The notes: a model not told the origin generated them from the sequence alone. A DNA stretch of 64,000 bases from an uncultured virus (IMG/VR IMGVR_UViG_2061766007_000832) (IMGVR_UViG_2061766007_000832), one strand, 5' to 3'. Shown: positions 15,747 through 58,947, numbered from the stretch's first letter. A program made the numbers and translations.

Positions 15747-15748
15747 AT

Positions 15749-19370: not shown

Positions 19371-19419
19371 AAAAGAAAAAGTCGCTGAACGAGTTCTGAG
19401 ACTCGCTGTTCAGCGACTT
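19371..19419 (-). terminator. Attenuator before the lysis cassette; contains conserved hairpin copy C (19402-19418)
   Basis: AAGTCGCTGAAC...GTTCAGCGACTT-TTTCTTTT; element AG-T-CGCT-GAAC-AGCG-AG. Confidence 0.8.
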
Positions 19420-19444
19420 GTAGTGGAACATATCCCACAAGCTT

Positions 19445-19473
19445 ATTATATGCAAGTAGTATGAAAATTGCAA
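19445..19473 (-). promoter_or_regulatory. Lysis-cassette promoter
   Basis: TTGCAA-17-TATAAT; ACTAC in the spacer and in the leader. Confidence 0.8.
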
Positions 19474-19851
19474 TAAGTATTATTCTTTTTCATCGTCATC
19501 AGGATAACTTTTCCCGGTCACAAAAAGGAATGCGATCACCCCAAAGAATGATCCTGCGATAAGACAAACCGGAACAAGCCACCATGGAACCATATTGGAT
19601 CACCTCACTTTGCCCCTTGTCGGGGCGATGCTACTGAGGAGAAACACAAGTAGTCTGCATGGCATCACCCCCCTTTGTTATAGTTAGTCATGTCAATAGC
19701 CGTGAATTGCGTCCTATTCATGGCTTCGTTTTGTTCTTTAACTTTGTGCAATCATCGTGTGCATCCCATCCGATAATAAAACCGATTACGAAAACAACGG
19801 CAATCAATGCACATATCCATCCGACCATGTTCTTTTTCCCACTCCTATTCA

Positions 19852-22076
19852 TTAGTTGTCATATAATATTTTCTCAAAGTTAAGCTGATCACTTGTAACG
19901 CCGCTGATATAATCATCAAGAGCAAGCATATCAGCTTCTGCATTGATAGTCCATGTTTCCAACGGCAAACCAAGAGTAACGCAAAGGTTTAACCATGTGG
20001 AATCAATCCCGCTTGATGACAGATTGATAAATACCTCGTTTCTTCCAGTCCTTAATTCTGTTGCTTTTGTGATTTCTGCCGTAATTGAATCACCGGAAGG
20101 GAGTCTGCCTACCCTTGCACATGGATCATACGCAACCACTTTCATCAAGTTGTTATGGTAGAATGAAATCCATGTTACCGCTCGTTGCATATTGTACTTT
20201 TTAACAATCTCAACAAGAGATAACACCTGTGCGGATGTAAAAGATCCACCACTTATTTCTATATAAGGGAAAAGTCCTTTGTTTCGGCAGAATACAATGA
20301 ACTGTTCAAACGTTGGTATCTTTGTTCCTGCGTATGTGGAACTTACTGCGATACCAAAGTCATATTCAAGCGCCTGTGCGTATGTTATTGATGCAATATT
20401 TACCGTTCCGGATATTTCCGTTCCATCAGAATTTCTTGCCGTTCTGTTGATTGATTCGTCATGGAGTAAAACAGGCACACCGTCAGAAGTGAACCGGACA
20501 TCAGTTTCCACAAACTTGAATCCTTCTTCAACTGACTTCTGATATGCAGGAATAGTGTTTTCCGGTGCTATGTAAAACCCTCTGTGATTGATTCCTTTTA
20601 CCCTGTGAGAATCGAAGTCATAGGTCACAGGATCATATACAACAACGTTTCCACTTACCGTTGCGAGAAAAGCAATATTGCTTGTTGTAATTGTCAATTC
20701 ATAATCATCGAACCCACGGAATGTAAAAGCAACCTGTTTTACATTGCTTCCCGGTGTGTATGTNNNNNNNNNNGTGTAAAACCCTCTGTGATTGATTCCT
20801 TTTACCCTGTGAGAGTCAAAGTCATAAGTCACAGGATCATATACAACAACGTTTCCGCTTACCGTTGCGAGAAAAGCAATATTGCTTGTTGTAATTGTCA
20901 GTTCATAATCATCGAATCCACGGAATGTAAAAGCAACCTGTTTTACATTGCTTCCCGGTGTGTATGTCAGGTTTAACAGCATAGCTGTTGCCGATGTAAG
21001 TGTCCTTCTGTAAAATGTTCCGTCATTTAACCACTCACAGGCANNNNNNNNNNCCCATCTGAAAGCGTGGTCGGTATGCTAACCATTCCATCCACATTGT
21101 TTTTCATGTCAGAGACAGTTTTTACTGTATTCGGTTCTCTATTGAAAATCAATGCGTTATATGCGTTTGCTTCATCCTCTGGTGTGAAAACTGCTTCAGC
21201 TTTTTTTGTTGTCCAGAAGAAATACTCTCCGTCAGCAGGACACGTATATTTTAAAGTTGTGCTTTCGATCGCATGAAGCACCGTCATATTATCGGTATAA
21301 TATCCACCGCCAAATTCAAATATCCACGTATTATCCCTATTTACTGTGTCACCTTTTTTCAAAGACAAGTATTGCCCACTTGCAAAGGACATACGTTTAT
21401 TATTTGAACCGGATGCTTCTGTTCCGTTGCTTACATAGCGGACCAATCCTGCTTTATATTTTGGAGGAACAATCGTTCCGTCATAATTCAGCAAACGATT
21501 TTCATAATGCCCAGATGCTTCTTCAACAGTATTTAGTTCGGCAACAACATCTGAAGATAGTTTCTGCTTCGTAACGCTTCCGTCCTCAATAGATGCTGTT
21601 GACGGACTTACCCATACAGGATGAAGATTGTTGTCTAATGACAAAACCTGACCTGATGTTCCAGCGGTTGACGGTGCATCCTGTTTGCCTTGAATAGCTG
21701 TCAATACATCAGTTACCTGTTCCCCTACAGTTAGCTGTGTCCAATGCGCTGCTGTCCAGCTTTCACTACTCTGAATGGCACTATTCGCAATGTAATACAG
21801 TCCTTCATGAANNNNNNNNNNAACATCAGTTACCTGCTCCCCTACAGTTAGCTGCGTCCAATGCGCTGCGGTCCAGTCTTCACTACTCTGAATGGCACTA
21901 TTCGCAATGTAATACAGTCCTTCATGAATACACGGCTGGCCCTGGGCAACAGGAAAAGTCAGATCCGCATAGTTAGGTGCAATGATGCCTACACTATTCT
22001 CCTGCCGTTCACGCAGATCGTTATAGAGTAATTGTACAACTTCATTTGAAGCAGCCTTTTTAATTATTTCACTCAT
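19852..22076 (-). CDS. Tail-associated protein with C-terminal glycerophosphodiester phosphodiesterase (GDPD); probably one gene, broken by gaps
   Basis: INHRG, APENTIPAY, VETDVRFTSDGVPVLLHD, KIPTFEQF, TWTIN, GVTSD; N-terminal fibre-like segments. Confidence 0.8.
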
Positions 22077-24909
22077 GCGCTCACCCCATATCCGTCAATA
22101 ATCGCCTGTGCGTCTGCCAGTGTCATGTATGTAACAGGTTCCAGCTTCGTACCGCCTGTACTGTCCGGATTGCATCCAACGTATACATCACCCATGAGAC
22201 GTTCATTGCCTTCCCAGTCGAGAACCCGGGCATTGGAACGAGCATCGTCTGCGGTTCCGTTACCGATGATCTCGACATAGTTCATCTTTCCGGCCTGATC
22301 AATCCAGTGCGATGCAGTCCAACCGGAGTCCGTGTTCTCTGTTTTACAGATATATCCTTCCACAACGGTCTGTTCGTCAACAAGCCTTGTGCGTTTCCGC
22401 TTNNNNNNNNNNTATCCTTCAGCGTGTGAGAAGCTCCCTGTCGCAATAGTTTGGAATCCTTCGCTGTGCGCTCCGTCACCGCTTGCAACTGTAATGTCAC
22501 CTTCACTGTGACTGAAATTGCCTAAAGAACCAGAAGTATAATTTGTCCCGTTTATTTGGAACGATCCTCCATAACCCTCTGCGTGTGATAACGCTCCGGA
22601 TGCAATCGTATTACGCCCTTCGGCGTGGGCGTTGGTACCGCTTGCAAGTGTGCCGTTCCCTTCTGCATGAGATTGCGGTGCTGAAGCGATGGTATAAGCG
22701 CCCTCAGAATGTGCCTGTTCTCCTGAAGCGAAGGTGTTCTGTCCTTCTGAGTGNNNNNNNNNNCATGCCAACAGTGCATGTTTCACCAGGGGTCCACTCT
22801 GTCCAGTTGTCGTAGCTGTCAGCGATATTATACTTACCGGACGCATGGCTGAATGCACCCGCAGCAATGGTTGATGCGCCTTCAGCATGGCTTTGCGGAC
22901 CGGAAGCGATAGTCCCGCCACCTTCAGCATGTGCGTCTGTTCCGGTAGCTTGTGTTCCGCTACCTTCAGCATGTGCGTCTGATCCGGTAGCTTGTGTCCC
23001 GCCACCTTCAGAATGAGAACCAATACCAGATGCGGTTGTGCCTGAACCTTCTGCATGCGCATATGAACTTGATGCGGTTGAATTATACCCTTCCGCATGT
23101 GCTCCGACAGCAGACGTATTTGTGTTATATCCTTCAGTGTGTGAGAAGGCTCCTTCCGCAAGAGTTTGGAATCCTTCGCTGTGAGATCCGTCACCGCTTG
23201 CAACTGTAACGTCACCTTCACTGTGACTGTAATCGCCCAAAGAACCAGAAGTATAATTTGTTCCGTTCCTTTGNNNNNNNNNNGTTGGTACCGCTTGCAA
23301 GTGTTCCGTTCCCTTCTGCATGAGATTGCGGTGCTGAAGCAATAGTATAAGCACCTTCAGAATGTGCCTGTTCTCCTGAAGCGAAGGTGTTCTGTCCTTC
23401 TGAGTGCGCTCCTGTACCTGAAGCAACGGTTTTATCGCCTTCGCTGTGGGAGCTTGTTCCGGACGCTCTTGACGTATATTCAGTTGAGTTATACGTAAAG
23501 ATTCCGCCAGTTCCTTCAGCATGAGAGTTGGTTCCGCTTGCTAAAGTTGACTGACCTTCCGCATGGGCAGCCTGTCCGCTCGATTTTGTTTCACGGCCCT
23601 CGGCATGAGAAGAATTCCCTGTTGTTTCGGTATAATATCCTTCAGCGTGAGAATAGTCTTCTTTTGCATTGGAATGATATCCCTCAACATGGGCATAATC
23701 TTCAGTTGCTTCTGTAAGATTGCCTTCAGCATGCGCTCCGTTACCGCTTGCAAGCGTATGGTATCCTTCAGCATGTGCATATAGGCTCGTTGCGCTTGTA
23801 TATTCGCCTTCTGCATGTGCAGCTTCTGCTGTTGCCCCTGTCTGGTGTCCTTCGGCATGAGCGCCTACCCCTTGTGCGGTAGTAAAAGAACCTTCCGCAA
23901 AAGCTCCATTTCCTCTCGCCGTCGTGTACCGTCCGAAAGCATCTGAGGCAAGACCTGACGCTTCGTTTTCTTCACCAAACGCAATGGATGCTGCACCAAC
24001 ATTGCTACCTGCAGCTCTTCCACGGCTCAGTGTGGTTTCGAGAACAGTGTCCCGCTTGTCCGCTTTCCGTGTCTCAAGGTCACCGCTTGTGATATCAATG
24101 TACTGTGTTCCCGTCCATCTGTACTGGTGGTTGTTTGAAAGACTGATGTAGATTTTTCCGCTTTCACCGGGCATTGGGAACATGCTCAGTGATGCAAACT
24201 CGAGAACATCGTCAACATAGCTCGGCAGCTGTTCAGACGGCACTCGACCGGAAGCATCGAGTCCTGCCACGCCGTTTGCAGAGCCGATCTGTGCAGTGTC
24301 TATTTTCCCGCTCAGTTCCTGCTTTGTGGCAAAGTTGTTTAGTCCGAGCTGCTGATTGAAGTCCGTAGGATCAGGGTTCTGCAGGTCGCCGTTGTTCGTC
24401 CAGGTCATTACACCGTCCGTAATGTGCGGAGTAAATACTGCACCAGGGTCGCCTTTGATCTTACCTTCTTCAATCGCCTTCTCGATCTCGGCAATGACCA
24501 TGTCCGGAATCTCTTGCACGACTTCCATGGCATCATTGATAACACCAAGCGCCTGTTCGATAAAGCTTTGCTCTTCCGGAGTCGGCTCTGTGGTCGGTAC
24601 ACTTGCCCTGGCACGTACGGGAACATGGTTGCCATAGATCGTAACGGACTTGTTCTCGCCCGTCACGTACAGCCAGAAGTACACAGGCTTTCCTGTCTTC
24701 GTAACATTGTACGGGATCACAACTCCGGACGCATCGCCAAGTTGTTTCTCGGCAGGGCCAATGCTCTTGTTTGCGAAATGCACCTCATAGGAAAAAGGCA
24801 GATCGATGTTCTTAAACTGAATCTTCTGCCCAAAGTCATACTGCCATATGAAGTTTTCTTCCCCTACGGGTCTGTCTATGAGATCGTACTCAATCACATT
24901 TGCCGGCAT
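22073..24909 (-). CDS. Baseplate/tail-fibre protein with BppU-like N-terminus and 14-aa SHAEG (YadA-head-like) repeats; gapped
   Basis: IWQYDFGQ, YEVHFAN, LPSYVDDVLE, many (S/A)HAEGxxTxASG repeats, IIGNGTADDARSNA. Confidence 0.85.
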
Positions 24910-24944
24910 GCGATCACCTCTTGCTTCAGGTCGATCTGGAAATT

Positions 24945-24983
24945 AAAAAGCACCAAACAATGATTTCTCACCGTTTGGTGCCT
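24945..24983 (-). terminator. Attenuator before the fibre gene; contains conserved hairpin copy E (24967-24983)
   Basis: 14-bp stem GCACCAAACGGTGA-GAAA-TCATTGTTTGGTGC-TTTTT; element AG-G-CACC-AAAC-GGTG-AG. Confidence 0.8.
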
Positions 24984-25005
24984 CAACATATTCTTTTACG
25001 AATAT

Positions 25006-25034
25006 ATTGTACACGAAACTTACTTGTTTTGCAA
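25006..25034 (-). promoter_or_regulatory. Promoter for the fibre genes
   Basis: TTGCAA-17-TACAAT. Confidence 0.7.
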
Positions 25035-25041
25035 CGATAAT

Positions 25042-25977: not shown

Positions 25978-26231
25978 TGGCGCAACACCACCGATACAAC
26001 ATTCACACCCTGACTGAGTCCGATGATGTGAATATAACCCGTGTAGACGTTCGTATCGTCACCGTACTCATAGGTGATCTCGGACAGCCTTTCGGGAGTT
26101 AAAAGGTTCACAAGCTGAACAATATCCATACCGTTTCCGATATACAGAAACAGATTGTTTATGTTCACGGCAGGATAGCTATTCTCGAGGATCGTTCCGT
26201 CACTTAGCTTCAGCGTTCCCATCCTGTACAC
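25974..26231 (-). CDS. Hypothetical tail-module protein
   Basis: ORF coupled to its neighbours. Confidence 0.65.
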   Translation of the reverse strand: MYRMGTLKLSDGTILENSYPAVNINNLFLYIGNGMDIVQLVNLLTPERLSEITYEYGDDTNVYTGYIHIIGLSQGVNVVSVVLRQ

Positions 26232-26529
26232 CCTCCTCGTAACGCTTCACTTCGGCAATTGCTTCAGCGCTTACAACAGGTTCCGATGCTTCCTGTGCCT
26301 TTTTCGCTTCAGCTTCTTCTGCTGCTTTGCGATCCGCTTCACACATCGCAACGAAAGCTGTAAACAGATTCTTACGAACAGTACTGATTGTAATTCCGAA
26401 CTTTACCACCTCCTCGTTATTGTAGGTAAGTGTGTCAAGCCGTCTGATGCTGTCATCAATTACGTCAAGCACAGTTACTGTCTGTTCCTCCTGAGGTGCT
26501 TCCGGTACGAGTTCGAGTTTGTTTTCCAT
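26200..26529 (-). CDS. Hypothetical acidic protein after the tail-tip gene (variant copy at 26814-27085)
   Basis: MENKLELVPE with AGGAGG RBS. Confidence 0.7.
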   Translation of the reverse strand: MENKLELVPEAPQEEQTVTVLDVIDDSIRRLDTLTYNNEEVVKFGITISTVRKNLFTAFVAMCEADRKAAEEAEAKKAQEASEPVVSAEAIAEVKRYEEGVQDGNAEAK

Positions 26530-31293: not shown

Positions 31294-31294
31294 A

Positions 31295-39067: not shown

Positions 39068-39511
39068 TCAGGTGGAACTGAACACAACAACCGTACTGGG
39101 CGTTGCGTTGATGGTCATGCCAACCGCTTCGTTGACACCGCCGCCGGAAACACCGGCAGAGATTTCACCGGACCAGTCGAACTTTCCGTTGTGACCGTCG
39201 GGGATTTCGTTGCCGGCAGTACCGGAAGCGCCAAACCATACGGCGTAATCGTAGATGTGACCTTCGAGGGCTACGACCTTGGAGTAGTTTTCTGCGGTGT
39301 AGTTTGCTCCGAAACTAAACTCGGAAGTATCGCCGACACCGCTGATGTAGGTCCTCATGTAGTCCGACAGGGAGGTAATGTCGATACGCTCCTTCGGGGG
39401 GATCAGGTCCGGGAAGCTGGTTATATCAATCAGCTTCGCAAACGTGCCGGTCGTGGTCGTACGGTACATCAGGTATGTCTGATACGTGGAAATACCTTTC
39501 TGTGCAGGCAT
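39068..39511 (-). CDS. Major tail (tube) protein
   Basis: KLIDITSFPDL, IDITSLSD, FSFGANYT, GGGVNE; AAAGGAG RBS before MPAQKG. Confidence 0.88.
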   Translation of the reverse strand: MPAQKGISTYQTYLMYRTTTTGTFAKLIDITSFPDLIPPKERIDITSLSDYMRTYISGVGDTSEFSFGANYTAENYSKVVALEGHIYDYAVWFGASGTAGNEIPDGHNGKFDWSGEISAGVSGGGVNEAVGMTINATPSTVVVFSST

Positions 39512-39542: not shown

Positions 39543-39591
39543 AAAAAACGCATGATGCGTGGGTTGAACCCAGACTCGCAATCATGCGCCT
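39543..39591 (-). terminator. Attenuator before the major tail gene; contains conserved hairpin copy B (39575-39591)
   Basis: GCGCATGATTGCG...CGCATCATGCGT-TTTTT; element AG-G-CGCA-TGAT-TGCG-AG. Confidence 0.8.
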
Positions 39592-44649: not shown

Positions 44650-46413
44650 TCAACTCCTCCAGGTGACTCCGCTGTTCTTCCGTGCCCTGTTTGCACAGCT
44701 TCTGGAGTCATAGATCTGATTCGCTTCTTTTTTCACGAAGCGCTTACCGCACACAGGGCAAATCCCATACTTGCCCTCATTGTCACCAGAACTCTGCGTA
44801 CCGCCCTCAGACTCTGCCTGGGCCGTAATGCCCTCTGCACTCGTCGGGTTGGTGGTATCGTTCTCGTTCAGCGGGATACCGTCTGCCTGTGCGTTCAGTT
44901 CCTTAAGCTCCTGCGCAAGACGCTGCTGGTACTCGTCATACACAATGGCATCCGCCTCAGGATCTTTACTCAGATGGCTGAACTTAAACGCCTGGATGGC
45001 CGGCATACCCGCCTGACGCAGGGTTGAGAAGCTCTGCGTCTTTACGAGCAGATCCTCGTAGCTCTGCCTCCAGAATCTGGGCTCGAGGTCGCTGATCTTC
45101 AGTCCTTCGAGCTTTCCGGTCTGTGCGCAAATCTTAAGAATAACCTTCAGAAACTCAGTCTCAGCCTTGCGCCACATCGCCTGGGTCTGAAGCGCCCGGG
45201 CTTCAGCATGCCACCAGCCGTTCCGCAGAATAACCGCACCATTGTTGCTGCTGTCGCCTGTGTTTGCACTGCCCTGGCTCGGCATGCCGACAATCTCGTA
45301 CACAATCTGCTTCATTGCGCTTACGAGACTGTTCGTCTGGCTCTGATCCAGCTGTTCGTTCAGGTAGTACAGCTTCTTTCCGCCATTTGAATTCGGTGTC
45401 GCAGGAAGCTGAATCGCTCCCAGGTCCTTCAGCTTCAGCAGCTGTTCCCTGTCAATGTCCACACCGTCGAACACCATCAGCGCCTGGATAAACTGCTCCA
45501 CGCCGTCAAGCTGGTTCGAGAAAGTGATATTGATCGCATCGAGCAGGGTCAGGACATACTCAAATGCCCCGATACGATCAGGATTGCACGGGTACTCGAT
45601 CAGACTGATGCGCCCAAAGTTATGTACCCGCTCGTCAGTTATTGTCAGTCCCTCGCCGTTCTCCGTTCCCTCAATCGTGTAGGTCACGTTCGGCGTGTAG
45701 ACGGTATATTCCACGTTGCTTGCCGGCGGGTCCCTGTACACATAGGTCACACCCATAGCCGGCTTTTTCTTTGCGTTGTTGTATTTTACGATGAACGTGT
45801 TTTCCACGTCCGGATTGCTTATCTCAAACGGAGCTTCATCGAGGAAGTCATCCGCCTCATACTCGTCCTTATCGGAGTATGTCAGTCTGTAGGTCGTGCC
45901 ACAGGTGAACATGTCGTGGGCCATCTCCAGGTCAATCGCCTGTTTGCCCTCAGAGAGCATCATATCGTTTACTGTGGCGACCTTTTCGGTGATATCCTTG
46001 GCGAGCTCGGCTGCTTCCTCACTGAGCTCTTCCTCTTCCTCACCAAGAGCTTTCCGCATGTCCTTGTTGCCACGGCGACTCACGTATTGAATCGGTTCCC
46101 CAGCAAACTCGGCCTCCTTAAAGGTCGTGATGGAGCTCGCAATGTTCACAACGACCTTGTTATTGATCTCGTTGTTGTACTGCTTGCTACGATTCAGAAT
46201 CGGCTGAATACCCTTCTCGTAGTTCTTGAGGAAGATGATCTCAGCACGATTCTTCCGGTGTACAGTCATGGCTTTTTGAAGGACATCAATCACGTTCTCC
46301 CGTGTGATCTTCTTCTCGCCTGTATAGATAATCCGCCGTCCGTGCAGTCCACGGGAGAAATCGATAGTGCAGTCCAAGATCGAAGCATCCGCAACGGCCT
46401 GTCTTTCGGTCAT
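44650..46413 (-). CDS. Portal protein (SPP1 gp6-like) with C-terminal Cys motif
   Basis: INNKVVVN, FAGEPIQY, LIEYPCN, LLDAIN, IVGMP, DSSNNGAV; start MTERQ after GGAGG. Confidence 0.92.
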   Translation of the reverse strand: MTERQAVADASILDCTIDFSRGLHGRRIIYTGEKKITRENVIDVLQKAMTVHRKNRAEIIFLKNYEKGIQPILNRSKQYNNEINNKVVVNIASSITTFKEAEFAGEPIQYVSRRGNKDMRKALGEEEEELSEEAAELAKDITEKVATVNDMMLSEGKQAIDLEMAHDMFTCGTTYRLTYSDKDEYEADDFLDEAPFEISNPDVENTFIVKYNNAKKKPAMGVTYVYRDPPASNVEYTVYTPNVTYTIEGTENGEGLTITDERVHNFGRISLIEYPCNPDRIGAFEYVLTLLDAINITFSNQLDGVEQFIQALMVFDGVDIDREQLLKLKDLGAIQLPATPNSNGGKKLYYLNEQLDQSQTNSLVSAMKQIVYEIVGMPSQGSANTGDSSNNGAVILRNGWWHAEARALQTQAMWRKAETEFLKVILKICAQTGKLEGLKISDLEPRFWRQSYEDLLVKTQSFSTLRQAGMPAIQAFKFSHLSKDPEADAIVYDEYQQRLAQELKELNAQADGIPLNENDTTNPTSAEGITAQAESEGGTQSSGDNEGKYGICPVCGKRFVKKEANQIYDSRSCANRARKNSGVTWRS

Positions 46414-46438: not shown

Positions 46439-46486
46439 TAAGAAAAAGACGCAGAACCAACGATTCCTCGCTGTCCAGCGTCTTTT
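46439..46486 (-). terminator. Attenuator before portal; contains conserved hairpin copy D (46467-46483)
   Basis: AAAAGACGC...GCGTCTTTT-TCTT; element AG-A-CGCT-GGAC-AGCG-AG. Confidence 0.8.
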
Positions 46487-46560
46487 CGCAAAATTTACCG
46501 AGCGTGACAGATCCGTACAATTGGATGTGAAGCGAACCGTTTGCACGGTCTGTCAACTGC

Positions 46561-46589
46561 ATTATAACTACATTTTGTAGTGGTGTCAA
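46561..46589 (-). promoter_or_regulatory. Consensus sigma-A promoter of the head operon
   Basis: TTGACA-17-TATAAT; the spacer holds ACTAC-N5-GTAGT. Confidence 0.9.
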
Positions 46590-48278: not shown

Positions 48279-48292
48279 GTTATCACTCCTAT

Positions 48293-48339
48293 AAAAAACG
48301 GGAACAAGCGTTTCCGCTCATTCCCGTAGTCATACGGCT
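48293..48339 (-). terminator. Attenuator before terL; overlapped by conserved hairpin copy F (48323-48339)
   Basis: ACGGGAATGAGCG-GAAA-CGCTTGTTCCCGT-TTTTT; element AG-C-CGTA-TGAC-TACG-GG. Confidence 0.8.
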
Positions 48340-48342
48340 TAA

Positions 48343-49235: not shown

Positions 49236-49241
49236 TCCCCC

Positions 49242-49520
49242 TCAGATATCATCGTCCAGGTACGCTTCGGGCCGCTCCACTTCGAGCTTCCACATGACGT
49301 TCCCAGTCTCCCGATCCGCAATAACTACGTCGTAGTCGAGTGCGTCGAGAATCTTCGAGAACATTTCCAGACTCATCCGAGGTCTGTTCATGCTCTGGGA
49401 CAGGGCGTTCTGGCTCACTCCGATCCGTCCGGCAAGCATCGTCTGCGTTACGTTCCGTCCCTTCTGCGCTTTCTTCAATATCTCTTTGTCCTGTAGCTCC
49501 CTGATTTGAATATTCGCCAT
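49242..49520 (-). CDS. XRE-family HTH regulator
   Basis: VTQTMLAGRIGVSQNALSQSMNR...FSKILDALDYDVVI. Confidence 0.85.
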   Translation of the reverse strand: MANIQIRELQDKEILKKAQKGRNVTQTMLAGRIGVSQNALSQSMNRPRMSLEMFSKILDALDYDVVIADRETGNVMWKLEVERPEAYLDDDI

Positions 49521-49552
49521 ATTTGCAATATCCTCCTTTCTATTTCATACAC

Positions 49553-49581
49553 ATTCTATCATGATACAAGGATAATGTAAA
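49553..49581 (-). promoter_or_regulatory. Promoter of the HTH-terL operon
   Basis: TTTACA-17-TAGAAT overlapping the palindrome TATCATGATA. Confidence 0.7.
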
Positions 49582-49755
49582 GCCTTTTTTATTTTTTTTG
49601 ATTTTTTCAGGTCCACTGCAAAGGGGGCTTTTTTGTTTTTTTCGGTGCTGGGAGGGGTCACGAGCCAGGGTGCCGGCTCTCCGGATATTCCCCTACGGGT
49701 AGGATATCCAGAAGGAAAACAACAACAAACAACCTACCTGTGTCAAGCAAAATTG

Positions 49756-49784
49756 TTGCATATATCCGGATATCATGATATACT
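49756..49784 (+). promoter_or_regulatory. Promoter of the plus-strand island
   Basis: TTGCAT-17-TATACT with extended TG, overlapping the palindrome TATCATGATA. Confidence 0.75.
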
Positions 49785-49790
49785 TACATT

Positions 49791-50088
49791 GTCAAAAGGA
49801 GCTAAAAGCTCCAGGGCGGGAAGTCCGCCGTGTATCGTAGCGAAAACCGTGTGACAGGCGGTTAGCTTTTGGGATGTGCTATAACCCTGTGAACCTTGAA
49901 AATTTTACAGCTGGAAACACTGAGAAGTACTGGCACATAAAAGCATGGTGTGACGAACACAAGCGAGCTTGTGCATAATAAGACTTTTCAGTGTAAGTAA
50001 GCAACATTGTACATATTCCGGATAGTTTGAGATATCCGGTCAGTATGTACAAACCGCAAGCCCTACAAAATGAAAGGGGAATGAAAAA
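49791..50088 (+). ncRNA. Structured ~300-nt leader or ncRNA candidate
   Basis: No ORF; stems AAAAGCT/AGCTTTT, CCGCC/GGCGG, ACACTGAGAAGT/ACTTTTCAGTGT enclosing CACAAG/CTTGTG, and TTGTACATA...TATGTACAA. Confidence 0.45.
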
Positions 50089-50406
50089 ATGACTATAGAA
50101 ACAATTAACCTACTTTCTAAAGAAGAAGTGAAAAACATTGAAAATGTTACATGGAATAAGAACACAGCAAGTCATGTAAACAAGTTAATTCGCATTGCAA
50201 CAGGGTTAAACGCTGAAATAGAACGTTATAAAACGCTCGCTAAATTAATCCCTGCTGAAGTTCTCGCAAAGCTTACAACGGTTGACGTTGAAACAAGAGA
50301 ACGCCCGCAATTCTCTAAAGACGATTTTATCGCCGTATATGGTGAGGAAGAATACAAGCGTTTTTTGCGGAACGTTCCCGCAAAGTATGTATCATTCAAC
50401 GGATAA
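50089..50406 (+). CDS. Hypothetical protein flanked by 24-nt inverted repeats
   Basis: AAAGGGG RBS. Confidence 0.8.
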   Translation: MTIETINLLSKEEVKNIENVTWNKNTASHVNKLIRIATGLNAEIERYKTLAKLIPAEVLAKLTTVDVETRERPQFSKDDFIAVYGEEEYKRFLRNVPAKYVSFNG

Positions 50407-50468
50407 ATAAAGACAGGGCTTGCGGTTTGTGCATACTGCACAAAACAAAATTATGGAGGAATGAAACA

Positions 50469-51164
50469 ATGAAAACCTACTTTGCAAAAGCCCTGGAATC
50501 TTTCAAAATCAACCTTTCCATTATTTCCGAATGTATCCGAACAGGTAAAAACCTTGCGGAAATGGTAAGCATTTCGGAAGGAAACACAAAAACGGGAAAA
50601 ATCCCGTCCGTTTCTCTTCTGCCCCGTTTTTCCTGCCCTTGGAACCGTTGTAAGGATACATGCGGGAAACGGTGCTATGCTATCAAGCTTTGCACACTGC
50701 GCAACACCGTTATGAATGCATACGCTAAAAATTCCGCCGTTTTCAAGCTGTCGCCTACTGCATATTTCAATGCGGTTGACAGTGTTATGAAACGGTCACA
50801 GTTCTTCCGGTACCATATCGGCGGAGATATCCCGAACCGGAAATATTTCCGAATGATGATTAAAACCGCAAAAAACAACCCGCACTGCACTGTACTGTTC
50901 TTCACAAAACAGTATGAAATTGTTAACGAATGGATAGCAAAAAACGGACAGCTACCTGCTAACATGCGGTGCATGTTTTCCGGCTGGACAAACCTTAAGC
51001 CCGTCAACCCGTACAACCTGCCGGAAACGACAGTGTACGCAAAAGATGAGGATTTCAATCCTGCATGGACTGCATGCGGGGGGATTTGCCTTGACTGCGC
51101 ACTGCACTGTGGCGGATGCTGGGAAGCTAAAAACGGCGAGACAGTCGCCTTCAAAATCCACTGA
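50469..51164 (+). CDS. GP88-like Cys-rich protein
   Basis: ISEGNTKTG, SCP...C...CYA, FRYHIGGD, FFTK, C..C..C...C.CW, VAFKIH. Confidence 0.75.
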   Translation: MKTYFAKALESFKINLSIISECIRTGKNLAEMVSISEGNTKTGKIPSVSLLPRFSCPWNRCKDTCGKRCYAIKLCTLRNTVMNAYAKNSAVFKLSPTAYFNAVDSVMKRSQFFRYHIGGDIPNRKYFRMMIKTAKNNPHCTVLFFTKQYEIVNEWIAKNGQLPANMRCMFSGWTNLKPVNPYNLPETTVYAKDEDFNPAWTACGGICLDCALHCGGCWEAKNGETVAFKIH

Positions 51165-51220
51165 CCAACAACAACGGGCGGGGCGGAAACGCTCCGCCCT
51201 ATATGAAAGGGGAATGAAAA

Positions 51221-53182
51221 ATGTTTCCGGTATACATTGACGGTTTTGAAGACTATGCGAGCGAATCCGAACGGATCCGGCTGGAAAGAGACAACTACAG
51301 ACAGTACGAGCTGTCTATCTTTGAAAGCTTTGAAGAATACATGCAGGATAGAGAAGAAGACGAACGTTGACGGACAGGGGCGGAAGTATTGAGACTGTTC
51401 AAACGACTGACGAAAGTATGTTGAAAGGAGAATGAACCGTGTACATTTTAACGGACAAAGACTACGACGAAATTGTACGACTGAACAAGCGCAATGGCTG
51501 GGGGTTCAGCATTGCAATGCTCATGAGAGCATGCAGGGAACACAAAAAGGCATATGAAACCGGAGATGAACGCCGCATGGCAATGATTGAAGAGCGACTG
51601 ACGGACGCTAATTATCATTCGGAATGCTCGTTTCTGTCTGAGCATGACTATGACGGATACAAGAAATTCATAAAGGAGGAATGGAAAGATGCGAAAGATT
51701 AAACATTGGGCCGGATACGGCACTGTACAGGCAGGAGTCATCAAAGACGGATCCTGCACACTGCACGTCATGGTGACCGGAATGCACGAGTGCGGACTCA
51801 GGCGGGATGACCTGTCAGACCTGTATAAATGGCTCGTCAAGCGGTTCGACAAATCCGTTCCGGACGAGTTGACATGGCTCCGGAGCTATCCTGTAGTCGA
51901 TATACGGGAAGACTGGAACATGAACAATGACGTATGCCACTACTACTTCACATACTGATACGGACAGCCGGCAGCTCGAACACCGAGCTGTCGTAGCCCG
52001 TACCAATACGGGAGAAAGAGAGGAAAAGGAAATGTATTGGAACGTCTACGACGTGCGGGAGAACAAGCGCACAAACAACTTTTTCGGTCATGAAATTGTG
52101 ATTGACGGGGAAAGGGGCATCGACACGTACCCCGGAAAGTGGGACTACAGCGAAGCAAAACGGCACTATATGGACGGTGTGCCGTGGGACGTACCGCTGA
52201 AGAACGTTCACACCTGCACTGTCACAATTGACGGTCAGTGCTACGCTCTGGGACATGACACCTTCATGACAACGATATACGCGCTCGGCCCAGACAGACT
52301 GCACGAAGGAAAACCGAACGCAATATACTACATCGGGCACGGCATGGAAGCTCGAAACGAAGCAATAAAGGCTGTATGCCTTCCGCATGATGCAAAGACA
52401 GCAAGCGACATCGCCAAGAACTACGGCATATACGGCGGTGTACTGTACGAAAAGTAAGGAGGAAAAGCATTATGTGGTACGTATACGTCCGTTACCTGGC
52501 GTCCGGTCGAGAAGATTGCGTTAATACAACATTTGACTCAGCACAAGCAGCAATCAAACACATCGCCAAGTGCTATGCAATAGATAAAGACCTTGGACAG
52601 CTTGGCGAATACTACTACTTTATGAAAAAGCATTAAGGAGGTAAAGACAATGCCTATTCAAATTATATTTAAATGGGAATACGGATCCCGAAACAATAAC
52701 GGCATAAAGCTTCTCCGTGAAAGACTCATCGGATATCAGTATTTCAACGAGCAACTCTACGCTCGCTACGGCGAGTGGTACGTTCCCGTAACATACAAGA
52801 AGAAAAACGACGACCCGAACGACAACACATGGGTTATGGAAATTCATGTCGAAGCAGTGACAGCAGACATTTTCCCACGATATATCAAGTACGAAGGAAA
52901 GAAGGCGATCAAACCATGATCCTGATCACGTCTAAACGGCTCCGTTCCATCCTGTCCGAGTGCCGGACAGAAGCCGACCTGCAAGCAACCCTCCGCCATC
53001 ATCGAATCAAATTCAAGTACGACACAACGCCTGGTTACCTGTCGCTGGTCATTCCTACGGCAACCGGCGCAGTGAGGGTAACCAAGACAGCATCAAAAAC
53101 AGCCCCGTTTACAATCGGATGCACAGCCCCGGAACCATACGAGCGCCCGAAGCATCTGAAATACCACTACGAAACCTGTTGA
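51221..53182 (+). CDS. Run of small hypothetical genes (51221-51370, 51439-51702, 51689-51958, 52032-52457, 52472-52636, 52650-52919, 52916-53182)
   Basis: Co-oriented short ORFs, most with strong RBSs. Confidence 0.7.
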
Positions 53183-53215
53183 CATCCACTCTTTTCTGTA
53201 GTAAGATATTACTAC
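53179..53215 (+). promoter_or_regulatory. Island promoter, copy 1
   Basis: TTGACA-17-TAAGAT inside the palindrome GTAGTAA-GATA-TTACTAC. Confidence 0.8.
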
Positions 53216-53252
53216 AAAGAGCAGTACTGATAACCGAAAGGAGAGAAGAACC

Positions 53253-53573
53253 ATGACAATCGAGAGAAACAACGGACAGTACGTCATCAACAGTGATGAC
53301 GGAACAAAGGTCAGCATCACCTGCAATGAAGCGAGCTTACTGATCAACTACTGCGGAAAAGAAGGACTCCGGTCACAGATCAATGACCGACTCGATGAAG
53401 CCATCGAAAACGGAGATTGCGACCTGTCGAAGTACGAATACGGCGACCGTGAGGACTTCGTGCAGGAAGTATTCGAGAAGTTCGAGGCCGAGATCGACTA
53501 CGGCAACAGCGTAGACGATGAGGACATCGATGCAGAGATCTACGATCTCATCAGCTACTACGGGCTGGACTGA
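53253..53573 (+). CDS. Highly acidic small protein
   Basis: Asp/Glu-rich C-terminal half; first gene after the promoter. Confidence 0.75.
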   Translation: MTIERNNGQYVINSDDGTKVSITCNEASLLINYCGKEGLRSQINDRLDEAIENGDCDLSKYEYGDREDFVQEVFEKFEAEIDYGNSVDDEDIDAEIYDLISYYGLD

Positions 53574-53650
53574 CATTGACAGACAGGGGATGGACTCCAT
53601 CCCTTGTAGTCAGTGCCAAGGCACTGAAGAAAGAAAGGAGACATGAAACC

Positions 53651-54169
53651 ATGAGTCAGACCTACACAAGTGCAGGTACATCCATTAACCGGACCAAGCT
53701 TCCGGCGGTGTACAACAAAGCGATCTTTTCCGCCCCGTTCGTATTCGACTACGGATGCGGTAAGTACACGGATCACATCAGACAGCACCTCAACGGACAG
53801 GGACGGGAGCTCTTCCCGTACGATCCGTACAATCAGCCGAAGGAAATCAATGACGAATCCTTACAGCGCATGAATCTCTGCTCCTTGACAAACATCCCCG
53901 TCGATGTTGTCTGCTCGAACGTGCTCAATGTCATCGACTCCGAGTACGAGATCGAAACCATCGCACAGAACATCATGAACATCGTAACAGCAACAAACGG
54001 ATTCGGATTCATCACAGTATATGAAGGCGACAAGTCCGGCATCGGAAAACAGACAGGCAAGGATCAGTACCAACGGAACGAACCGCTCAAGAACTACCTC
54101 AAGTACTTCAGAGGTCACATAAAAGTAAGAGCTTCCATCCGGAACGGCATGATATTCCTGTTCAAATAA
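53651..54169 (+). CDS. Class I SAM-dependent methyltransferase
   Basis: VFDYGCGK, PYDPYN, VVCSNVLNVI, ITVYEGD. Confidence 0.8.
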   Translation: MSQTYTSAGTSINRTKLPAVYNKAIFSAPFVFDYGCGKYTDHIRQHLNGQGRELFPYDPYNQPKEINDESLQRMNLCSLTNIPVDVVCSNVLNVIDSEYEIETIAQNIMNIVTATNGFGFITVYEGDKSGIGKQTGKDQYQRNEPLKNYLKYFRGHIKVRASIRNGMIFLFK

Positions 54170-54176
54170 GGAGGAA

Positions 54177-56103
54177 ATGAACATGATCAGATTCCATGAT
54201 GTACCATTCACAGGAGATGCAATCGCCCTAAAAGACGGGCGATTCATCTGGCACAATCTCCATAGCGGAGACTGTCCGCCGGATATCGAGATGCTGTACG
54301 TCAAGTACATGTACGACTACGACGGCGTGATCGTCTTCGTGCTGACTGACAAGGAGGATTGACCATGCTGAAAACATACACGCCCAAAGAGATGGAAGAG
54401 ATCAAAGAGTTCGCCTATGACCTGTGGAACAGGGGCGACTACGATACAGTAACAGTCGATGCGAACGGCATCGACATAGTAAACCCGTGGGTAAACTGTG
54501 ACGGAAGAGAAGAATTCAGTACCAACAAAGAAGCCATCGCCTATTGGGGTGAAGACATCTTCTACGGATTCTGCGAAAAAGCTTTCGTCTACATGTATCA
54601 ACATCGGATTACAGTAACACCCTGGGAGGTGACCAAACCATGACCATTCGAGAGTATGCCAAAGCCCACCATCATGAGGTGGTGGGCAAGCTCCGGAGGA
54701 TGCCGGAGCATGACGGGAAAGATCCGGACGGGAAACCGTACAAGTTCTACATCGACTCCATGGGCAATGAGTACACCATCAATAGCAACGGCGTATGCAT
54801 CACAACCTTTGATGACTGCGTAATTTGAAAGGGGAATAAACATGGGCATGATTCTGAAGAACGTCACCAACGACGTATACACCTTTGAGAATGAATACGG
54901 CAAGACCTTTGAATTCACATGGGAAGAGGTGCGGTCAATTGCGACCGCCCTCATGATCGAATACCTCAAGCAGGATGTCAGCGAGACCGTTGACAACCTG
55001 ATTGAGGATGAAGAGATCAATCCTGCCAAGCTTAACGGACTGACCGTTGATCAGTTCAAGGAAAAGGTTATTGACGTACTGTCCTACGGAACCATACAAG
55101 AGCTTTCCGAACCGAACATGGATCTCATATGGAACACGTGCATGGATGAAGCAAGAGAACTTGCTCAAAAGGAGGGATAATCCATGAAGTACCTGCCGAA
55201 ATATTCTGTTGAACTCCTCCGCCCGACCGGAAACTGGAATGCAAAGTTCCCCGGACCATACGAAGCGACTGAGGAGCAGTTACGAAACACCCTGTACATT
55301 ACTGAATCCTGGACGGATCCTGCAACAGGAAAACATTACAGGTGGACAGACAAAAAGTGTGTTGTCGTTACCTTCGATGAGATCAAAGCGATCTATGACA
55401 GCTGGGATCAGTCCGAACTCGACGAGGACGAACGTTACCACAGTGTATATGACTGGCTTCGTGATGCTTTCATGGATAAGGGAGGAGCCTTCCAGCCCTG
55501 CCGACTGACTGCCGGCACTCGTTTCTCCTGCATGGATTACTACGGTACAGGTGGTGGATGTGTCCAGCTGGTGTTCAAGTTCAATGACGAAGCATGGTTT
55601 GCCACTGACTTCGACATTATCGAATGCTTTGACATGCCGTACATGGACATTGAGGATGAGTATGATGACCACAGAAAAACGCCATCCATTCCCTGTCCTA
55701 CATGGCAGGAGGTTCTCGACTACGCCAAGGAAAACATGAAGGATGATTGGGACGAGATTGAGCATGGTATCACAAGCTACCTGCTCTACGTCAACGGCAA
55801 ATGGGATGATCAAATCATATTGGAGGAGGAATAACCATGGCAAGTAACCTCAACACCATTGACGAAGTCAATAAATTCTACGATCAATGCATTTCATTCT
55901 GGATTCGACAGGGCGCCCCTGAAGAGGTCGCCTGTGCCAAGGCTTTCTGGTGGGATATTGTTGAAATCTCAAATCAGTTCGATTCCTGGTCACCTGCAAA
56001 GGAACAATTCGCAGCTGACACTGTCGGCTATCATCCCGGAGAACCTGAACCTTCTGAAGAAGACGTAAAAACAGGCCGTTGCAATTATCCTGCTTGGCCT
56101 TGA
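54177..56103 (+). CDS. Run of hypothetical genes (54177-54362, 54359-54643, 54640-54828, 54842-55180, 55184-55834, 55837-56103)
   Basis: Coupled co-oriented ORFs, mostly acidic. Confidence 0.7.
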
Positions 56104-56136
56104 CAACCACTCGTTTAAGTAGTAAGATATTACTAC
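56100..56136 (+). promoter_or_regulatory. Island promoter, copy 2
   Basis: TTGACA-17-TAAGAT; GTAGTAAGATATTACTACAAAGAGCAGTA identical to copy 1. Confidence 0.8.
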
Positions 56137-56179
56137 AAAGAGCAGTAGCTGAACTGCTGAAAAGAAAGGGGAATACACC

Positions 56180-56503
56180 ATGAAAATGAAGACTGTACGC
56201 ACCACAAGACTGAAGTACGCCAAGCGTGTACGCATTATGACCTCCAAATATACGGACGGATCCCTGTATGTAGGGATCCTCACGATGAGCGGAGAGGACT
56301 ACTGTGACATCACGACCAACCTTGTTGGATTCTATTATCCTCATCAAGCCTACGTGCAGTGCGGTTCCGAAGCTGAAGCTTTCCTGTGTGAGCAGGAGAT
56401 CGCAACGCCTTGCGCCCTCACCATTCAGTCCGGCTTCAACACCTACCGCCTGTATGACTTCACTCCCCTGCTAAATGATCCCGCCATGAAAGAGGTGAGC
56501 TAA
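56180..56503 (+). CDS. DUF4313-like hypothetical protein
   Basis: SKYTDGSLYVGI, GEDYCDITTNL, QSGFNTYRLYDF. Confidence 0.55.
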   Translation: MKMKTVRTTRLKYAKRVRIMTSKYTDGSLYVGILTMSGEDYCDITTNLVGFYYPHQAYVQCGSEAEAFLCEQEIATPCALTIQSGFNTYRLYDFTPLLNDPAMKEVS

Positions 56504-56504
56504 C

Positions 56505-57248
56505 ATGATCCCGACCGCATACAAGTCTCCGGCGGGGACGGTGTACTCACCGTTCCTCCGCCTGGCTGACAGACCTCACCTGCTGATCGCAGGATGCACA
56601 GGATCCGGTAAGTCCGTGGCCCTCAATGGAATCGTAGCGTCCCTGATGATCGCCCGTTCCCCGTTCACCACTCAGTTCGTGCTGATCGATCCAAAGCGAG
56701 TCGAGCTCTCGCAGTACCGGGATCTTCCTCACACTGTGAAATACGCAGCTGACCATCCGGATATCGTCCGAGCTCTACAGTGGGTACTCGAGGAAACTGA
56801 CAGGCGGTTCAAGTACATGTCCTCCGCCGGCGTGAAAGAGTATGAGGGCTCTCACCTGTACGTCATCATCGACGAACTCGCCGACCTCATGGTATCGATC
56901 AAGGAAGAGACGCTCCCGTTGCTACAGCGTCTCGCTCAGATCGGACGGGCAGCCCGGGTCCATGTCATCGCATGCTCGCAGAACATCATGGCACAGACCA
57001 TTCCTACCGTTCTCCGATGCAATTTCAGCACGATCCTGGGACTGCGCACCGCAAACAAACAGCAGTCCAGGTTCCTGATCAATGCCACAGGATGTGAACA
57101 GCTTCCGAACCCGAAGGTAGAAGGGAAAGGCTACGGCTTCCTGCGTGACGGAGCCGACCTCGAGAAGCTCTTCATCTACAAGTATCCCGATGAAACCATA
57201 ACCGACCTGATCAGGTGGTGGACGTCCTCCGCCTGTATCGCTGGATGA
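56505..57248 (+). CDS. Stand-alone FtsK/SpoIIIE-family ATPase domain
   Basis: PHLLIAGCTGSGKS, LIDPKRVEL, VIIDELADL, AQIGRAARVH. Confidence 0.9.
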   Translation: MIPTAYKSPAGTVYSPFLRLADRPHLLIAGCTGSGKSVALNGIVASLMIARSPFTTQFVLIDPKRVELSQYRDLPHTVKYAADHPDIVRALQWVLEETDRRFKYMSSAGVKEYEGSHLYVIIDELADLMVSIKEETLPLLQRLAQIGRAARVHVIACSQNIMAQTIPTVLRCNFSTILGLRTANKQQSRFLINATGCEQLPNPKVEGKGYGFLRDGADLEKLFIYKYPDETITDLIRWWTSSACIAG

Positions 57249-57261
57249 AAGGAGAACCGCC

Positions 57262-58366
57262 ATGAAAAACCGTATCATACTGACTTTCCTTGACGTTCCG
57301 AATGGCAAGGAAGTCCTCGTCAAAGTTCCGGAAGAACTCGACCGTGATGCTTTCGCAACATTCATCATGACAGAACTCGGGAACAATCCAACCTACGTCA
57401 TGATAAACGTGACCATGTTTTAAGGAGGCTTATATGAAAGCAGAATTCTACCGTGACTTCTCCGGCTGCACCGCTTCCATCCGGAAGTGGGGTAAGCAGT
57501 TCTGGCTCCGGATCAAGTCTCCGAACGGGACCATGACGGTCCAGTCCAAGCGGTACAACACCTACCGTGGTGCGAAGATTGCCATGGGCATTGCAGGTCA
57601 GAGCTGGACTCTGACCGGAAAGGGGTAAGCTATGAAAACATTTACCAAGTCTGACCTGCGTACCGGCATGTACGTCACGCTCCGCAACGGCGAATCCTAT
57701 TACGTCATGCTCAACACCGGTCTTAAACAGGGCGACATTATGATTCAAAAGTGCGGTCAGCAAATGGACTGGATGCCGCTGAAAAATTACGACGACCAGC
57801 TTTGCTACCATGACGATCCTGATGATGTCCTGACCGATATCTTCGGACCGGATACGCCCGAAAACCAAGCCAAATGGGACATCATGAAGGTCCAGGCTCC
57901 TCCGAACGTGCTGTACATCTGCACCGGAATCGACTACAATACCATCTGGGAAAGGAGCGAGTCCAAATGAAAAAGCAGCTCCGACTTATCCGGCAGGAAG
58001 CATTCGAGTCCATCATGAACTGTGCTTCGGACCTGACCGGATTCGCCAACGATCTTGAAGCCCTGAACAAACACTTCGAGTCGGACCGCTACCGTTCCCT
58101 TGCCAATTACCTCGAAGAGTTCATTCATCGTGAAAGGAGACTGACCAATGCCTAACATGACCCGTGAAGACTTCGGCAGCAACGTCCCGACCAACGCCGA
58201 TGACATCATCCAGCACGTAAACAACCTCATCCTGTACCATGAGGAGTGCGTATTCTGGGACGGTAACCACGCCGGAACCGACCAGTGGGAGAAGGAGCTC
58301 ATCTACTGCTGCGTACGTGGTGACCGGACCGACCCGTTACAGAACGTTCCGTCCCCTACCTACTGA
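57262..58366 (+). CDS. Run of small hypothetical genes (57262-57423, 57434-57628, 57632-57970, 57967-58155, 58148-58366)
   Basis: Coupled ORFs with RBSs. Confidence 0.7.
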
Positions 58367-58859
58367 CATTTCCCGTTCCCCTTTCTTTCTGCCCGTCCTG
58401 GCTTCGGCTGGGGCGGGCTTTTTTTATTTTATACCAACGCCCACTCTGACCATAATTGATCTTTGGGTTAACACCATTCTTCTCGCACCACTCTTTGAAT
58501 ATAAACATTTCTTTGATATGCTGACCCGTTCCAAGCTCCTGCTTCGCCTGGGTTTCCGTTATCTGTCTGTTAATATACCGAGTGAATACACTGTCTGCAA
58601 GCTGTGGATCATACACCTTTCTCTTCCGACCACCGTTGTTCGGTCTCTTACGTTTTCGTCCATACGTTATAATCGAATGACAATCCTCACAAACAGGGAC
58701 TAAGTTGCTGATAATATCTTTGCCACCACACTCAAGCGGAACGATATGGTGGTACTCGATCTTTGAACCAACATCCATTCCGCAGTTACAACAGACCGTG
58801 CCAAGCAACTTGTCACGTTTTGCCTTATGTGCTACTTTTCTGCTCTGATATGTACTCAT
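58356..58859 (-). CDS. HNH endonuclease
   Basis: CCNCG...YHHIVPLECGG...NLVPVCEDCH. Confidence 0.88.
   Translation of the reverse strand: MSTYQSRKVAHKAKRDKLLGTVCCNCGMDVGSKIEYHHIVPLECGGKDIISNLVPVCEDCHSIITYGRKRKRPNNGGRKRKVYDPQLADSVFTRYINRQITETQAKQELGTGQHIKEMFIFKEWCEKNGVNPKINYGQSGRWYKIKKARPSRSQDGQKERGTGNVSR
58391..58430 (+). terminator. Intrinsic terminator ending the island
   Basis: GCCCGTCCTGGC-TTCG-GCTGGGGCGGGC-T-rich tail. Confidence 0.9.
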
Positions 58860-58947
58860 GACTGCACCTTCCCTATCGTTTATTTCTCGCAGTCATGCGC
58901 CTACTACTTTTCGCATTTAGTATACTACATATAGTGCGAAAAGTCAA
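58855..58947 (-). promoter_or_regulatory. HNH promoter and start-codon-occluding hairpin; conserved hairpin copy A (58886-58902)
   Basis: TTGACT-17-TATACT; CATGACTGC pairs with GCAGTCATG, which includes the ATG; element AG-G-CGCA-TGAC-TGCG-AG. Confidence 0.75.

Follow-up and report, generated by a model that had tools for sequence, protein, structure and literature searches.

We describe a 17-nucleotide (nt) RNA hairpin that recurs before the late genes in a 64,000-nucleotide stretch of DNA from the uncultured virus IMGVR_UViG_2061766007_000832 (hereafter the window). The element consists of AG-N, a 4-base-pair (bp) stem, a 4-nt loop (rarely 5 nt) and an RG flank, and five of its six minus-strand copies lie directly upstream of terL, portal, the major tail gene, a fibre-like gene and the lysis cassette. 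Comparison with related phages demonstrates the element itself, its covariation, its conservation at homologous leaders and its mutual exclusion with predicted terminators. Our best reading is that it would be the RNA operator of one lineage of temperate cattle-gut Clostridia-type siphophages, and we place a probability of roughly 55% on factor-dependent antitermination that acts terminator by terminator.

All six 17-mers listed in a first-pass annotation were recovered with the same coordinates and sequences. On the minus strand these are copy F in the terL leader (48339–48323; stem CGUA/UACG), copy D in the portal leader (46483–46467), copy B before the major tail gene (39591–39575), copy E at the fibre unit (24983–24967; stem CACC/GGUG), copy C at the lysis unit (19418–19402) and copy A (58902–58886; stem CGCA/UGCG, loop UGAC, AG on both flanks), which has no terminator. 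The strict pattern (AG-N, four Watson–Crick pairs enclosing NRAY, then RG) was found seven times on the two strands of the window, compared to a mean of 0.20 and a maximum of 2 in 300 dinucleotide-preserving shuffles, which settles the annotation's question of whether it is as frequent in shuffled sequence. The seventh match, on the plus strand at 53639–53655 (stem CAUG/CAUG, loop AAAC), spans the interval from ribosome-binding site to AUG of a small SAM methyltransferase-like gene (assigned by eye); it may be real or a chance match, and at E ≤ 10 it was missed by a covariance model trained on the six copies. At that threshold the model returned only the six copies in the window, all on the minus (coding) strand. 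In a pairing-neutral test, sites were chosen by flanks and closing pair only (AG-N-C-N10-G-R-G), with pairing as the outcome: all three inner pairs were Watson–Crick at 7 of 47 sites in the window (0.73 expected), and 37 of 247 sites were fully paired in the window and five complete relatives together (3.9 expected). The terminators closing operons at 14278–14254 and, on the plus strand, 58391–58418 carry no copy. A scan of the whole window against Rfam gave no family match at the gathering score or at E ≤ 1, a comparison that the annotation had suggested.

We aligned 48 copies from the window and its relatives, 38 of them distinct. While the closing C–G pair was present in all 48, the distinct copies had GC, AU or CG at the second pair, CG, UA or GC at the third and AU, UA, CG or UG at the fourth, with 37 cells differing on both sides of a pair. 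The covariation score was 0.66 versus 0.17 in shuffles, a value reached by 0 of 500, and sliding the partner by one to three columns destroyed the signal. Covariation at three of the four stem positions had been noted from the window alone; the relatives extend it with compensatory changes at the same number of pairs and two U–G pairs. The stem of window copy F (CGUA/UACG) differs from its counterpart in relatives (CGCA/UGCG) at a base that lies outside the terminator. Judged on these comparisons, the hairpin is genuine, strand-specific and covarying.

Positions A1, G2, C4, G15 and G17 were invariant in the 48 copies. The first-pass view that flanks and loop are both conserved was right for the flanks, with AG, RG and the closing C–G pair kept, but not for the loop: NRAY describes the six window copies only, and loops in relatives include ATTT, GTAT, TTAT, GAAG, GAGC, AATT and others. 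Two roles for the loop were considered and rejected. A leader peptide was suggested by an AUG in the loops of A, F and B, which is not conserved in the terL leaders of relatives, and GGA, as in CsrA-type loops, occurs in D only.

The hairpin and the terminators compete for the same bases. The mini-hairpin alone has a predicted stability of −2.1 to −4.8 kcal/mol and the leader terminator hairpins −21 to −24.5 kcal/mol (longer segments, −23 to −34), so the far weaker mini-hairpins would leave 'stop' as the default fold. The proposed mutual exclusion is borne out at all five terminator-linked copies of the window, where the terminator re-pairs hairpin stem bases; all 40 such copies in the window and relatives have 3–8 of their 8 stem bases re-paired by it. 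An overlap with the terminator 5′ arm, suggested for all five, applies to B, C, D and E, in which the hairpin 5′ arm and loop form the lower 5′ arm of the terminator, the hairpin 3′ arm is re-used higher up and 7 or 8 of 8 stem bases are re-paired. At F, only the hairpin 3′ arm is shared, and it supplies the bottom three pairs of the terminator beside the U run.

These leaders, all on the minus strand, differ in how they are transcribed. The portal leader (46443–46589) opens with a sigma-70-type promoter matching the consensus at 12 of 12 positions (46589–46561), followed by a long-range helix, copy D and a terminator ending in a T run (46446–46443). In the fibre-unit leader (24947–25034), a promoter at 25034–25006 (9/12 by scan, with a TG before the −10 element read from the sequence) precedes a small 5′ hairpin, copy E and the terminator (24984–24947), and the lysis-unit leader (19376–19473) comprises a sigma-70-type promoter (19473–19445; 10/12), copy C, a terminator reaching 19381 and a T run (19380–19376). 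The three terminator copies D, E and C thus follow near-consensus promoters (9–12 of 12, 20–80 nt upstream), as the annotation had stated. The terL leader (48292–48339) contains copy F and a terminator (48327–48298) followed by a T run, and no promoter was recognised between it and the promoter of an XRE-type operon at 49581–49553. The major-tail leader (39543–39591) contains copy B and its terminator, with no upstream promoter recognised.

Portal leaders are structured over ~90 nt (46447–46554, minus strand, in the window) and have no Rfam match. Bases at about +5 to +20 of the transcript pair with bases just 5′ of the hairpin (GACAGACCGU with ACGGAUCUGUC in the window), and this helix covaries among the relatives in which it was seen (L001, L002, L003, L010, L031, L035, L040, G001, G002, G006, G007 and G010, in addition to the window).

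The element is not always part of a terminator, contrary to the picture first drawn of it: copy A and several copies in relatives lie on translation start regions. Copy A is located ~10 nt downstream of the likely transcript start from a sigma-70-type promoter (58947–58919, minus strand; 10/12). Its bases GCAUGACUGC pair with a competitor, GCAGUCAUG (58857–58865, minus strand), which includes the AUG (58859–58857) of an HNH endonuclease gene (58859–58356, minus strand), in a helix of −15.2 kcal/mol. Formation of the mini-hairpin at A would free this start codon.

No record in the phage collection matched the window DNA, the best TerL match there being 50% identical, and relatives were drawn from scans of IMG/VR and metagenomes (~90 loci, TerL identity 45–75%). 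Matches to the covariance model were confined to the group with TerL identity of at least 62% (up to 75%); loci L045–L108 (45–59% TerL identity, and partials) had none at E ≤ 10 except L066 (partial TerL, 68%). In ten related loci, 14 of 14 matches with E < 1 were on the coding strand. Ten whole viral records, five of them complete by CheckV (four of those with terminal repeats), had 1–5 matches each at E ≤ 1. Whether homologous leaders keep the pairing, a second question raised at first pass, has a positive answer, with copies before terL (or a small open reading frame (ORF) ahead of terL), portal, major tail, fibre-type and lysis-type units. Among portal leaders of the close group pulled by position, the hairpin was present in 13 of 13 (one with a 5-nt loop and one with a G–U pair), and all terL leaders seen in relatives carry it. 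In the fibre- and lysis-type leaders of most relatives it begins a fixed 20–23 nt after the −10 element.

Copies in relatives that lack a terminator are found on translation start regions. One covers the Shine–Dalgarno sequence and AUG of an 82-amino-acid (aa) gene heading the primase-to-terS operon (stems CGUC/GACG, CAUC/GAUG and UGCC/GGCA), and another sits before an RtcB-like gene. At the 82-aa gene in G006 (16341 region) and G007 (13200 region), loci L120 and L124, a 9-codon upstream ORF starts in the hairpin, with an ATGA overlap at the gene start.

Beyond this lineage, distant relatives keep a leader terminator with a self-folding 5′ arm and other flanks, and in many members of the wider group portal is preceded by a consensus promoter with a structured leader that ends in a terminator. 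Gating of late genes by termination therefore seems general in the wider group, on comparative grounds, with the 17-mer as the version used by one lineage. Downstream of terL in L038, L039, L072, L073, L074 and L078, a consensus promoter again precedes portal, and the long leader behind it is structured and terminated with other motifs, including a GGG-AGUAG-CUA-CCC hairpin directly after the promoter in L038, L039 and L072. An extra Cys-rich or HNH-like gene lies between terL and the portal leader in L006, L007, L008, L034 and L043, and the promoter–hairpin–terminator unit comes after the inserted gene. Scanning IMG/VR for the fibre-type 17-mer retrieved 27 stretches, 10 of them on contigs of the already known lineage. 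Of the 17 viewed in context, L139, L141 and L144 were promoter-linked, and the remaining 14 had no nearby promoter or terminator-like run and looked mostly coding (the rough chance estimate is ~20); no copy was found outside the lineage among the contexts viewed. Use of the motif by the host was rejected from a 4.3-megabase metagenome bin with a related phage (G011): two of its six matches are on the phage contig and only those have terminators, while the other four look coding, without a terminator or T run.

In the mechanism that we favour, the hairpin alone would be too weak to persist and the leader would fold into its intrinsic terminator, so that transcription, whether begun at the strong, apparently constitutive promoters or arriving from upstream genes, would stop before the terL, portal, major tail, fibre and lysis genes. 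By gripping the base of the hairpin, a factor acting in trans would withhold the terminator bases, and RNA polymerase would read on. Because the hairpin is so weak, such a stabiliser would be needed within a fraction of a second, before the 3′ arm of the terminator is made. The likely surface read is the stem base together with the single-stranded AG (5′) and RG (3′) flanks. At copy A, stabilisation of the hairpin would likewise expose the HNH start codon. We infer from the conserved sequences an antiterminator action at the RNA level, a need for a factor and, most likely, a phage protein as that factor. A broader version, to which we give somewhat less than even odds, is that the whole late programme would be run through one 17-nt RNA operator and an undescribed protein family, with the element serving as antiterminator on terminators and as translational switch on start regions. 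The programme would then take in packaging, head, tail, fibre and lysis, possibly joined in relatives by the primase-to-terS operon.

Several observations weigh against this mechanism. In the terL type, only 3 of 8 stem bases are common to hairpin and terminator, and the terminator keeps a 10-bp upper stem when the mini-hairpin forms. The homologous major-tail leader of L003 has no hairpin, and distant relatives lose the AG flanks, which implies that a sequence-specific reader is not needed everywhere. Complete pairing among the relatives' copies is so by construction, because the pattern or model used to collect them requires it; the informative parts of the covariation evidence are the variety of pair types, the position-based leader counts and the flank-only test. 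Lastly, Pfam scans of the larger phage ORFs from the window (136 submissions, some repeated) and from the complete relative G002 (60 ORFs) identified no RNA-binding regulator.

In keeping with the first-pass statement that the window encodes no known antiterminator protein, no CAT, ANTAR, HutP or N-type domain turned up in these scans of the window and G002 ORFs; PHROGs and Pfam identified only helix-turn-helix (HTH)-type, structural, replication and glycosyltransferase proteins. All six genomes, the window and its five complete relatives, share the non-structural proteins P0001, P0002, P0003, an FtsK-like ATPase, a terS-like protein and a glycosyltransferase (GT8); an XRE-like family upstream of terL emerged only with a profile. 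Because all of these are shared by descent, their co-occurrence with the motif is not independent evidence. The five relatives additionally share 82-aa, 98-aa, CHC2 zinc-finger and DUF927 genes that lie outside the window. Any phage protein that binds the hairpin can be named here as a candidate reader only.

P0002 (62911–63270, minus strand; 119 aa) is present in each of the six genomes compared, lies upstream of the terS-like gene and is a candidate regulator only. Its AlphaFold model (predicted local distance difference test score of 89) has five helices, and the C-terminal part resembles sigma region 4. Alignment to sigma region 4 chains gave Z values of 5–6.4, and alignment to the Q21 chain 6jnx_P tied with these (Z 6.3, root-mean-square deviation 3.8, 96 residues), all within the range stated by the tool for chance matches between helical models. 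No Pfam family was assigned to P0002, none of its 162 homologues is named, Foldseek returned nothing at E ≤ 0.001, and neither a profile search of Protein Data Bank (PDB) sequences nor a scan of viral contigs gave anything relevant. From its modelled fold, P0002 may be a lead, not a finding.

An XRE-type HTH protein (49242–49520, minus strand) is a second candidate only. Its gene is the first of an operon that runs into the terminator at F, and a profile search located the family immediately before the terL leader in 26 loci (some the same record twice, some distant relatives). By analogy with hutP, where the regulator is encoded upstream of its target terminator, this operon is a candidate source of the factor. 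Throughout the wider phage group the gene lies on the strand of the terL leader and is often followed by a ~60-aa protein (ICRxACDRRI-like) and a membrane protein, and it is divergent from the plus-strand operon in an arrangement resembling a second genetic switch.

P0001 (14285–14596, minus strand; 103 aa), the last gene product of the late strand, is a weak candidate only. The protein has a conserved Arg/Gly/Tyr-rich tail and is 61–83% identical in the five complete relatives; it matched only unnamed viral clusters in the protein atlas, and a PDB profile search gave nothing. Its Arg/Gly-rich tail invites comparison with lambda N, but in the motif-positive L139 a tail-less protein replaces it. 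The gene closes a conserved block after the lysis genes (14285–16900, minus strand), which encodes a 62-aa protein, a Cys-rich 152-aa protein (phrog_3754), Gln-rich small proteins, a Gly-rich membrane protein and P0001, and which was present in 10 of 10 loci fetched with P0001.

We compared the element with established systems. Lambda N and lambdoid Q are processive, working from one or two sites clear of the terminators; N is an arginine-rich protein, and its target combines boxA with a boxB hairpin, which has a 5-bp stem and a pentaloop. The phage studied here likewise places late or delayed genes behind terminators with a small nascent-RNA hairpin as the putative signal, and at D, E and C it combines a strong promoter (9–12 of 12), a short leader and a terminator in the manner of the lambdoid Q PR′/tR′ gate. 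In contrast to N and Q, every internal terminator has its own base-sharing copy, and the geometry differs from that of boxB. The phage Mu Com protein on mom mRNA and the coat-protein operator of MS2 are single-site translational controls, in which protein binding to a small hairpin at the translation start decides whether the start codon is accessible; hairpin state would similarly decide start-codon access at copy A and at the start-region copies of relatives, whereas here the same motif is also found on terminators. To our knowledge, the textbook examples of phage antitermination (N, Q, put RNA and Xp10 p7) are all processive.

The predicted logic is instead of the LicT/RAT, ANTAR and HutP type, while the RNA fits none of those definitions. 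According to the main text of a 2025 review of RNA-binding antiterminators, in which the word 'phage' is absent, BglG binds a RAT stem-loop that partly overlaps the terminator, RAT is a palindrome of ~30 nt, the ANTAR target consists of dual hairpins, and HutP is a hexamer recognising two clusters of three NAG motifs (PMC12591593). As with BglG, SacY and LicT at RAT, a small hairpin shares bases with the 5′ side of the terminator (40 of 40 here). Unlike RAT as defined in that text, the element is 17 nt long with a perfect 4-bp stem, a short loop and conserved single-stranded flanks; each phage genome has 5–6 copies, which sit on structural and lysis operons and not on a sugar operon, and no CAT/PRD protein was found in the ORFs scanned. 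ANTAR proteins (EutV, AmiR and NasR) and HutP also relieve termination one terminator at a time by acting on short RNA motifs, and by the review's description of the HutP target the flanks here resemble NAG. The differences from these are the single hairpin, with one AG on each side, and the absence of an ANTAR or HutP domain from the scanned ORFs. The first-pass judgement that the geometry matches none of RAT, ANTAR or boxB therefore stands, as size and stem, the single hairpin and the flanks all differ. At the level of abstracts, no hairpin-versus-terminator regulator in a phage was found described in the literature.

Four alternatives were weighed against terminator-by-terminator control. 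The element could be a loading site for processive antitermination (nut/boxB–N or a Q-type gate), with P0002 as the obvious candidate and the terminator overlap secondary. The factor would then bind the emerging hairpin, or a site close to the promoter, and render RNA polymerase resistant to the adjoining terminator and to those further on. Four copies follow consensus promoters that would yield short terminated leaders, as at lambdoid PR′/tR′, the spacing from the −10 element in fibre- and lysis-type leaders is fixed in most relatives, and P0002 is universal among the six genomes, its model aligning with sigma region 4 and Q21. We nonetheless consider this unlikely: copies F and B have no nearby promoter, a processive system would not need a copy at every internal terminator, and the structural evidence for P0002 amounts to Z values in the chance range, with nothing from Foldseek or the PDB profile search at the thresholds given above.

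An explanation that we hold to be similarly improbable dispenses with a trans factor, such that the self-folding 5′ arm would be a built-in leak, reducing the efficiency of each terminator by a constant amount and thereby setting the ratios of successive late units. It would account for the failure of the Pfam scans of the window ORFs and G002 to find a binding protein and for the self-complementary 5′ arms that distant relatives keep without conserved flanks. Parts of close relatives were also present as assembled contigs in three cattle-gut metatranscriptome runs, and in two RNA libraries contigs corresponding to 39592–39409 and 39601–39397 cross copy B and its terminator into the tail gene. 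These are compatible with read-through transcripts, as a weak hint, given that contigs cannot show transcript ends and DNA carry-over is possible. A 4-bp hairpin of −2 to −5 kcal/mol should, however, yield at once to a helix of −21 to −24.5 kcal/mol, and a leak explains neither the five invariant positions amid a varying stem interior and loop nor the copies on translation starts.

Recognition by an RNase or RNA chaperone, or a processing site shaping mRNA ends and stability between late genes, appears very unlikely. The copies do lie at intercistronic boundaries. In the RNA runs X18–X20, contigs covered the scaffold, head and major tail genes (39.2–44.6 kb) and not portal or terL; this suggests a higher or more stable head and tail message, and message levels may differ, with the limit that contigs cannot rank genes and the portal/terL gap is not evidence. 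Such a site would leave the base sharing with terminators (40 of 40) and the promoter-proximal copies unexplained. Contigs in run X3, whose kind is unrecorded and which is probably DNA, extended over 38.5–48.3 kb.

A double-stranded DNA operator bound by a phage HTH repressor that blocks the strong late promoters in the prophage can be set aside as scarcely credible: the core, CGC-N6-GCG, reads as an inverted repeat, strong promoters lie 10–70 bp upstream of four copies and the phage encodes at least two XRE-type HTH proteins, but the stems vary (CGCA, CGCU, CACC, CGUA, CCGC and CGUC) while every one of the 38 distinct copies stays complementary, two by means of U–G pairs that would be mismatches in DNA, F and B are far from promoters, and the asymmetric flanks and an orientation that is always that of transcription likewise speak for an operator read as RNA.

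The window covers the greater part of a temperate siphophage genome that is at least ~64 kb long, and its G+C content is 46%. It contains 1,990 masked positions (N) that break several ORF translations, for example within 14611–15342 and 16184–16642. Near-identical DNA was found in runs labelled bovine gut metagenome, and one complete relative sits in a bin titled 'uncultured Clostridiales bacterium'. PHROGs and Pfam scans of the window ORFs placed the late genes all on the minus strand: terL (48278–46635), portal (ending at 44650) followed by a scaffold gene, the major head gene (42762–41692), the major tail gene (39510–39068, start at 39510), the tape measure gene (38046–33319) followed by tail proteins and a glycosyltransferase, fibre-like genes (24909–19852) and the lysis cassette (from 19356) with its holin (17860–17489). 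The late strand is closed by the bidirectional terminator at 14278–14254.

An ImmA/XRE pair is located at 2555–1485, and a plus-strand recombination and replication module (RecT and others) occupies 1–14 kb, split by a minus-strand ISL3-family transposase gene (11406–12851). A second plus-strand operon (49633–58418) encodes GP88, DUF4313 and the FtsK-like ATPase and ends at the strong terminator 58391–58418. The minus-strand operon of the XRE-type gene, from its promoter at 49581–49553 into the terL leader, additionally contains five ORFs of 47–67 aa. Beyond 58.9 kb lie a plus-strand serine recombinase (59044–59652) and a minus-strand cluster of glycosyltransferases, P0003, P0002 and the terS-like gene (59811–60365). 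In the window and G002, the terS-like gene and terL are ~10 kb apart with oppositely oriented genes between them, and in the window this small serine recombinase/invertase is located at the junction.

If terminator-by-terminator control is correct, this would be the first antitermination regulon of the RAT-like, non-processive kind described in a phage. A multi-copy hairpin-versus-terminator switch on every late unit is a design different from that of the processive phage systems, and it would explain the silence of strong host-type promoters inside a prophage. With 17 nt and one protein, it would also provide a compact, portable on/off part, and the motif offers a handle for finding the regulator.

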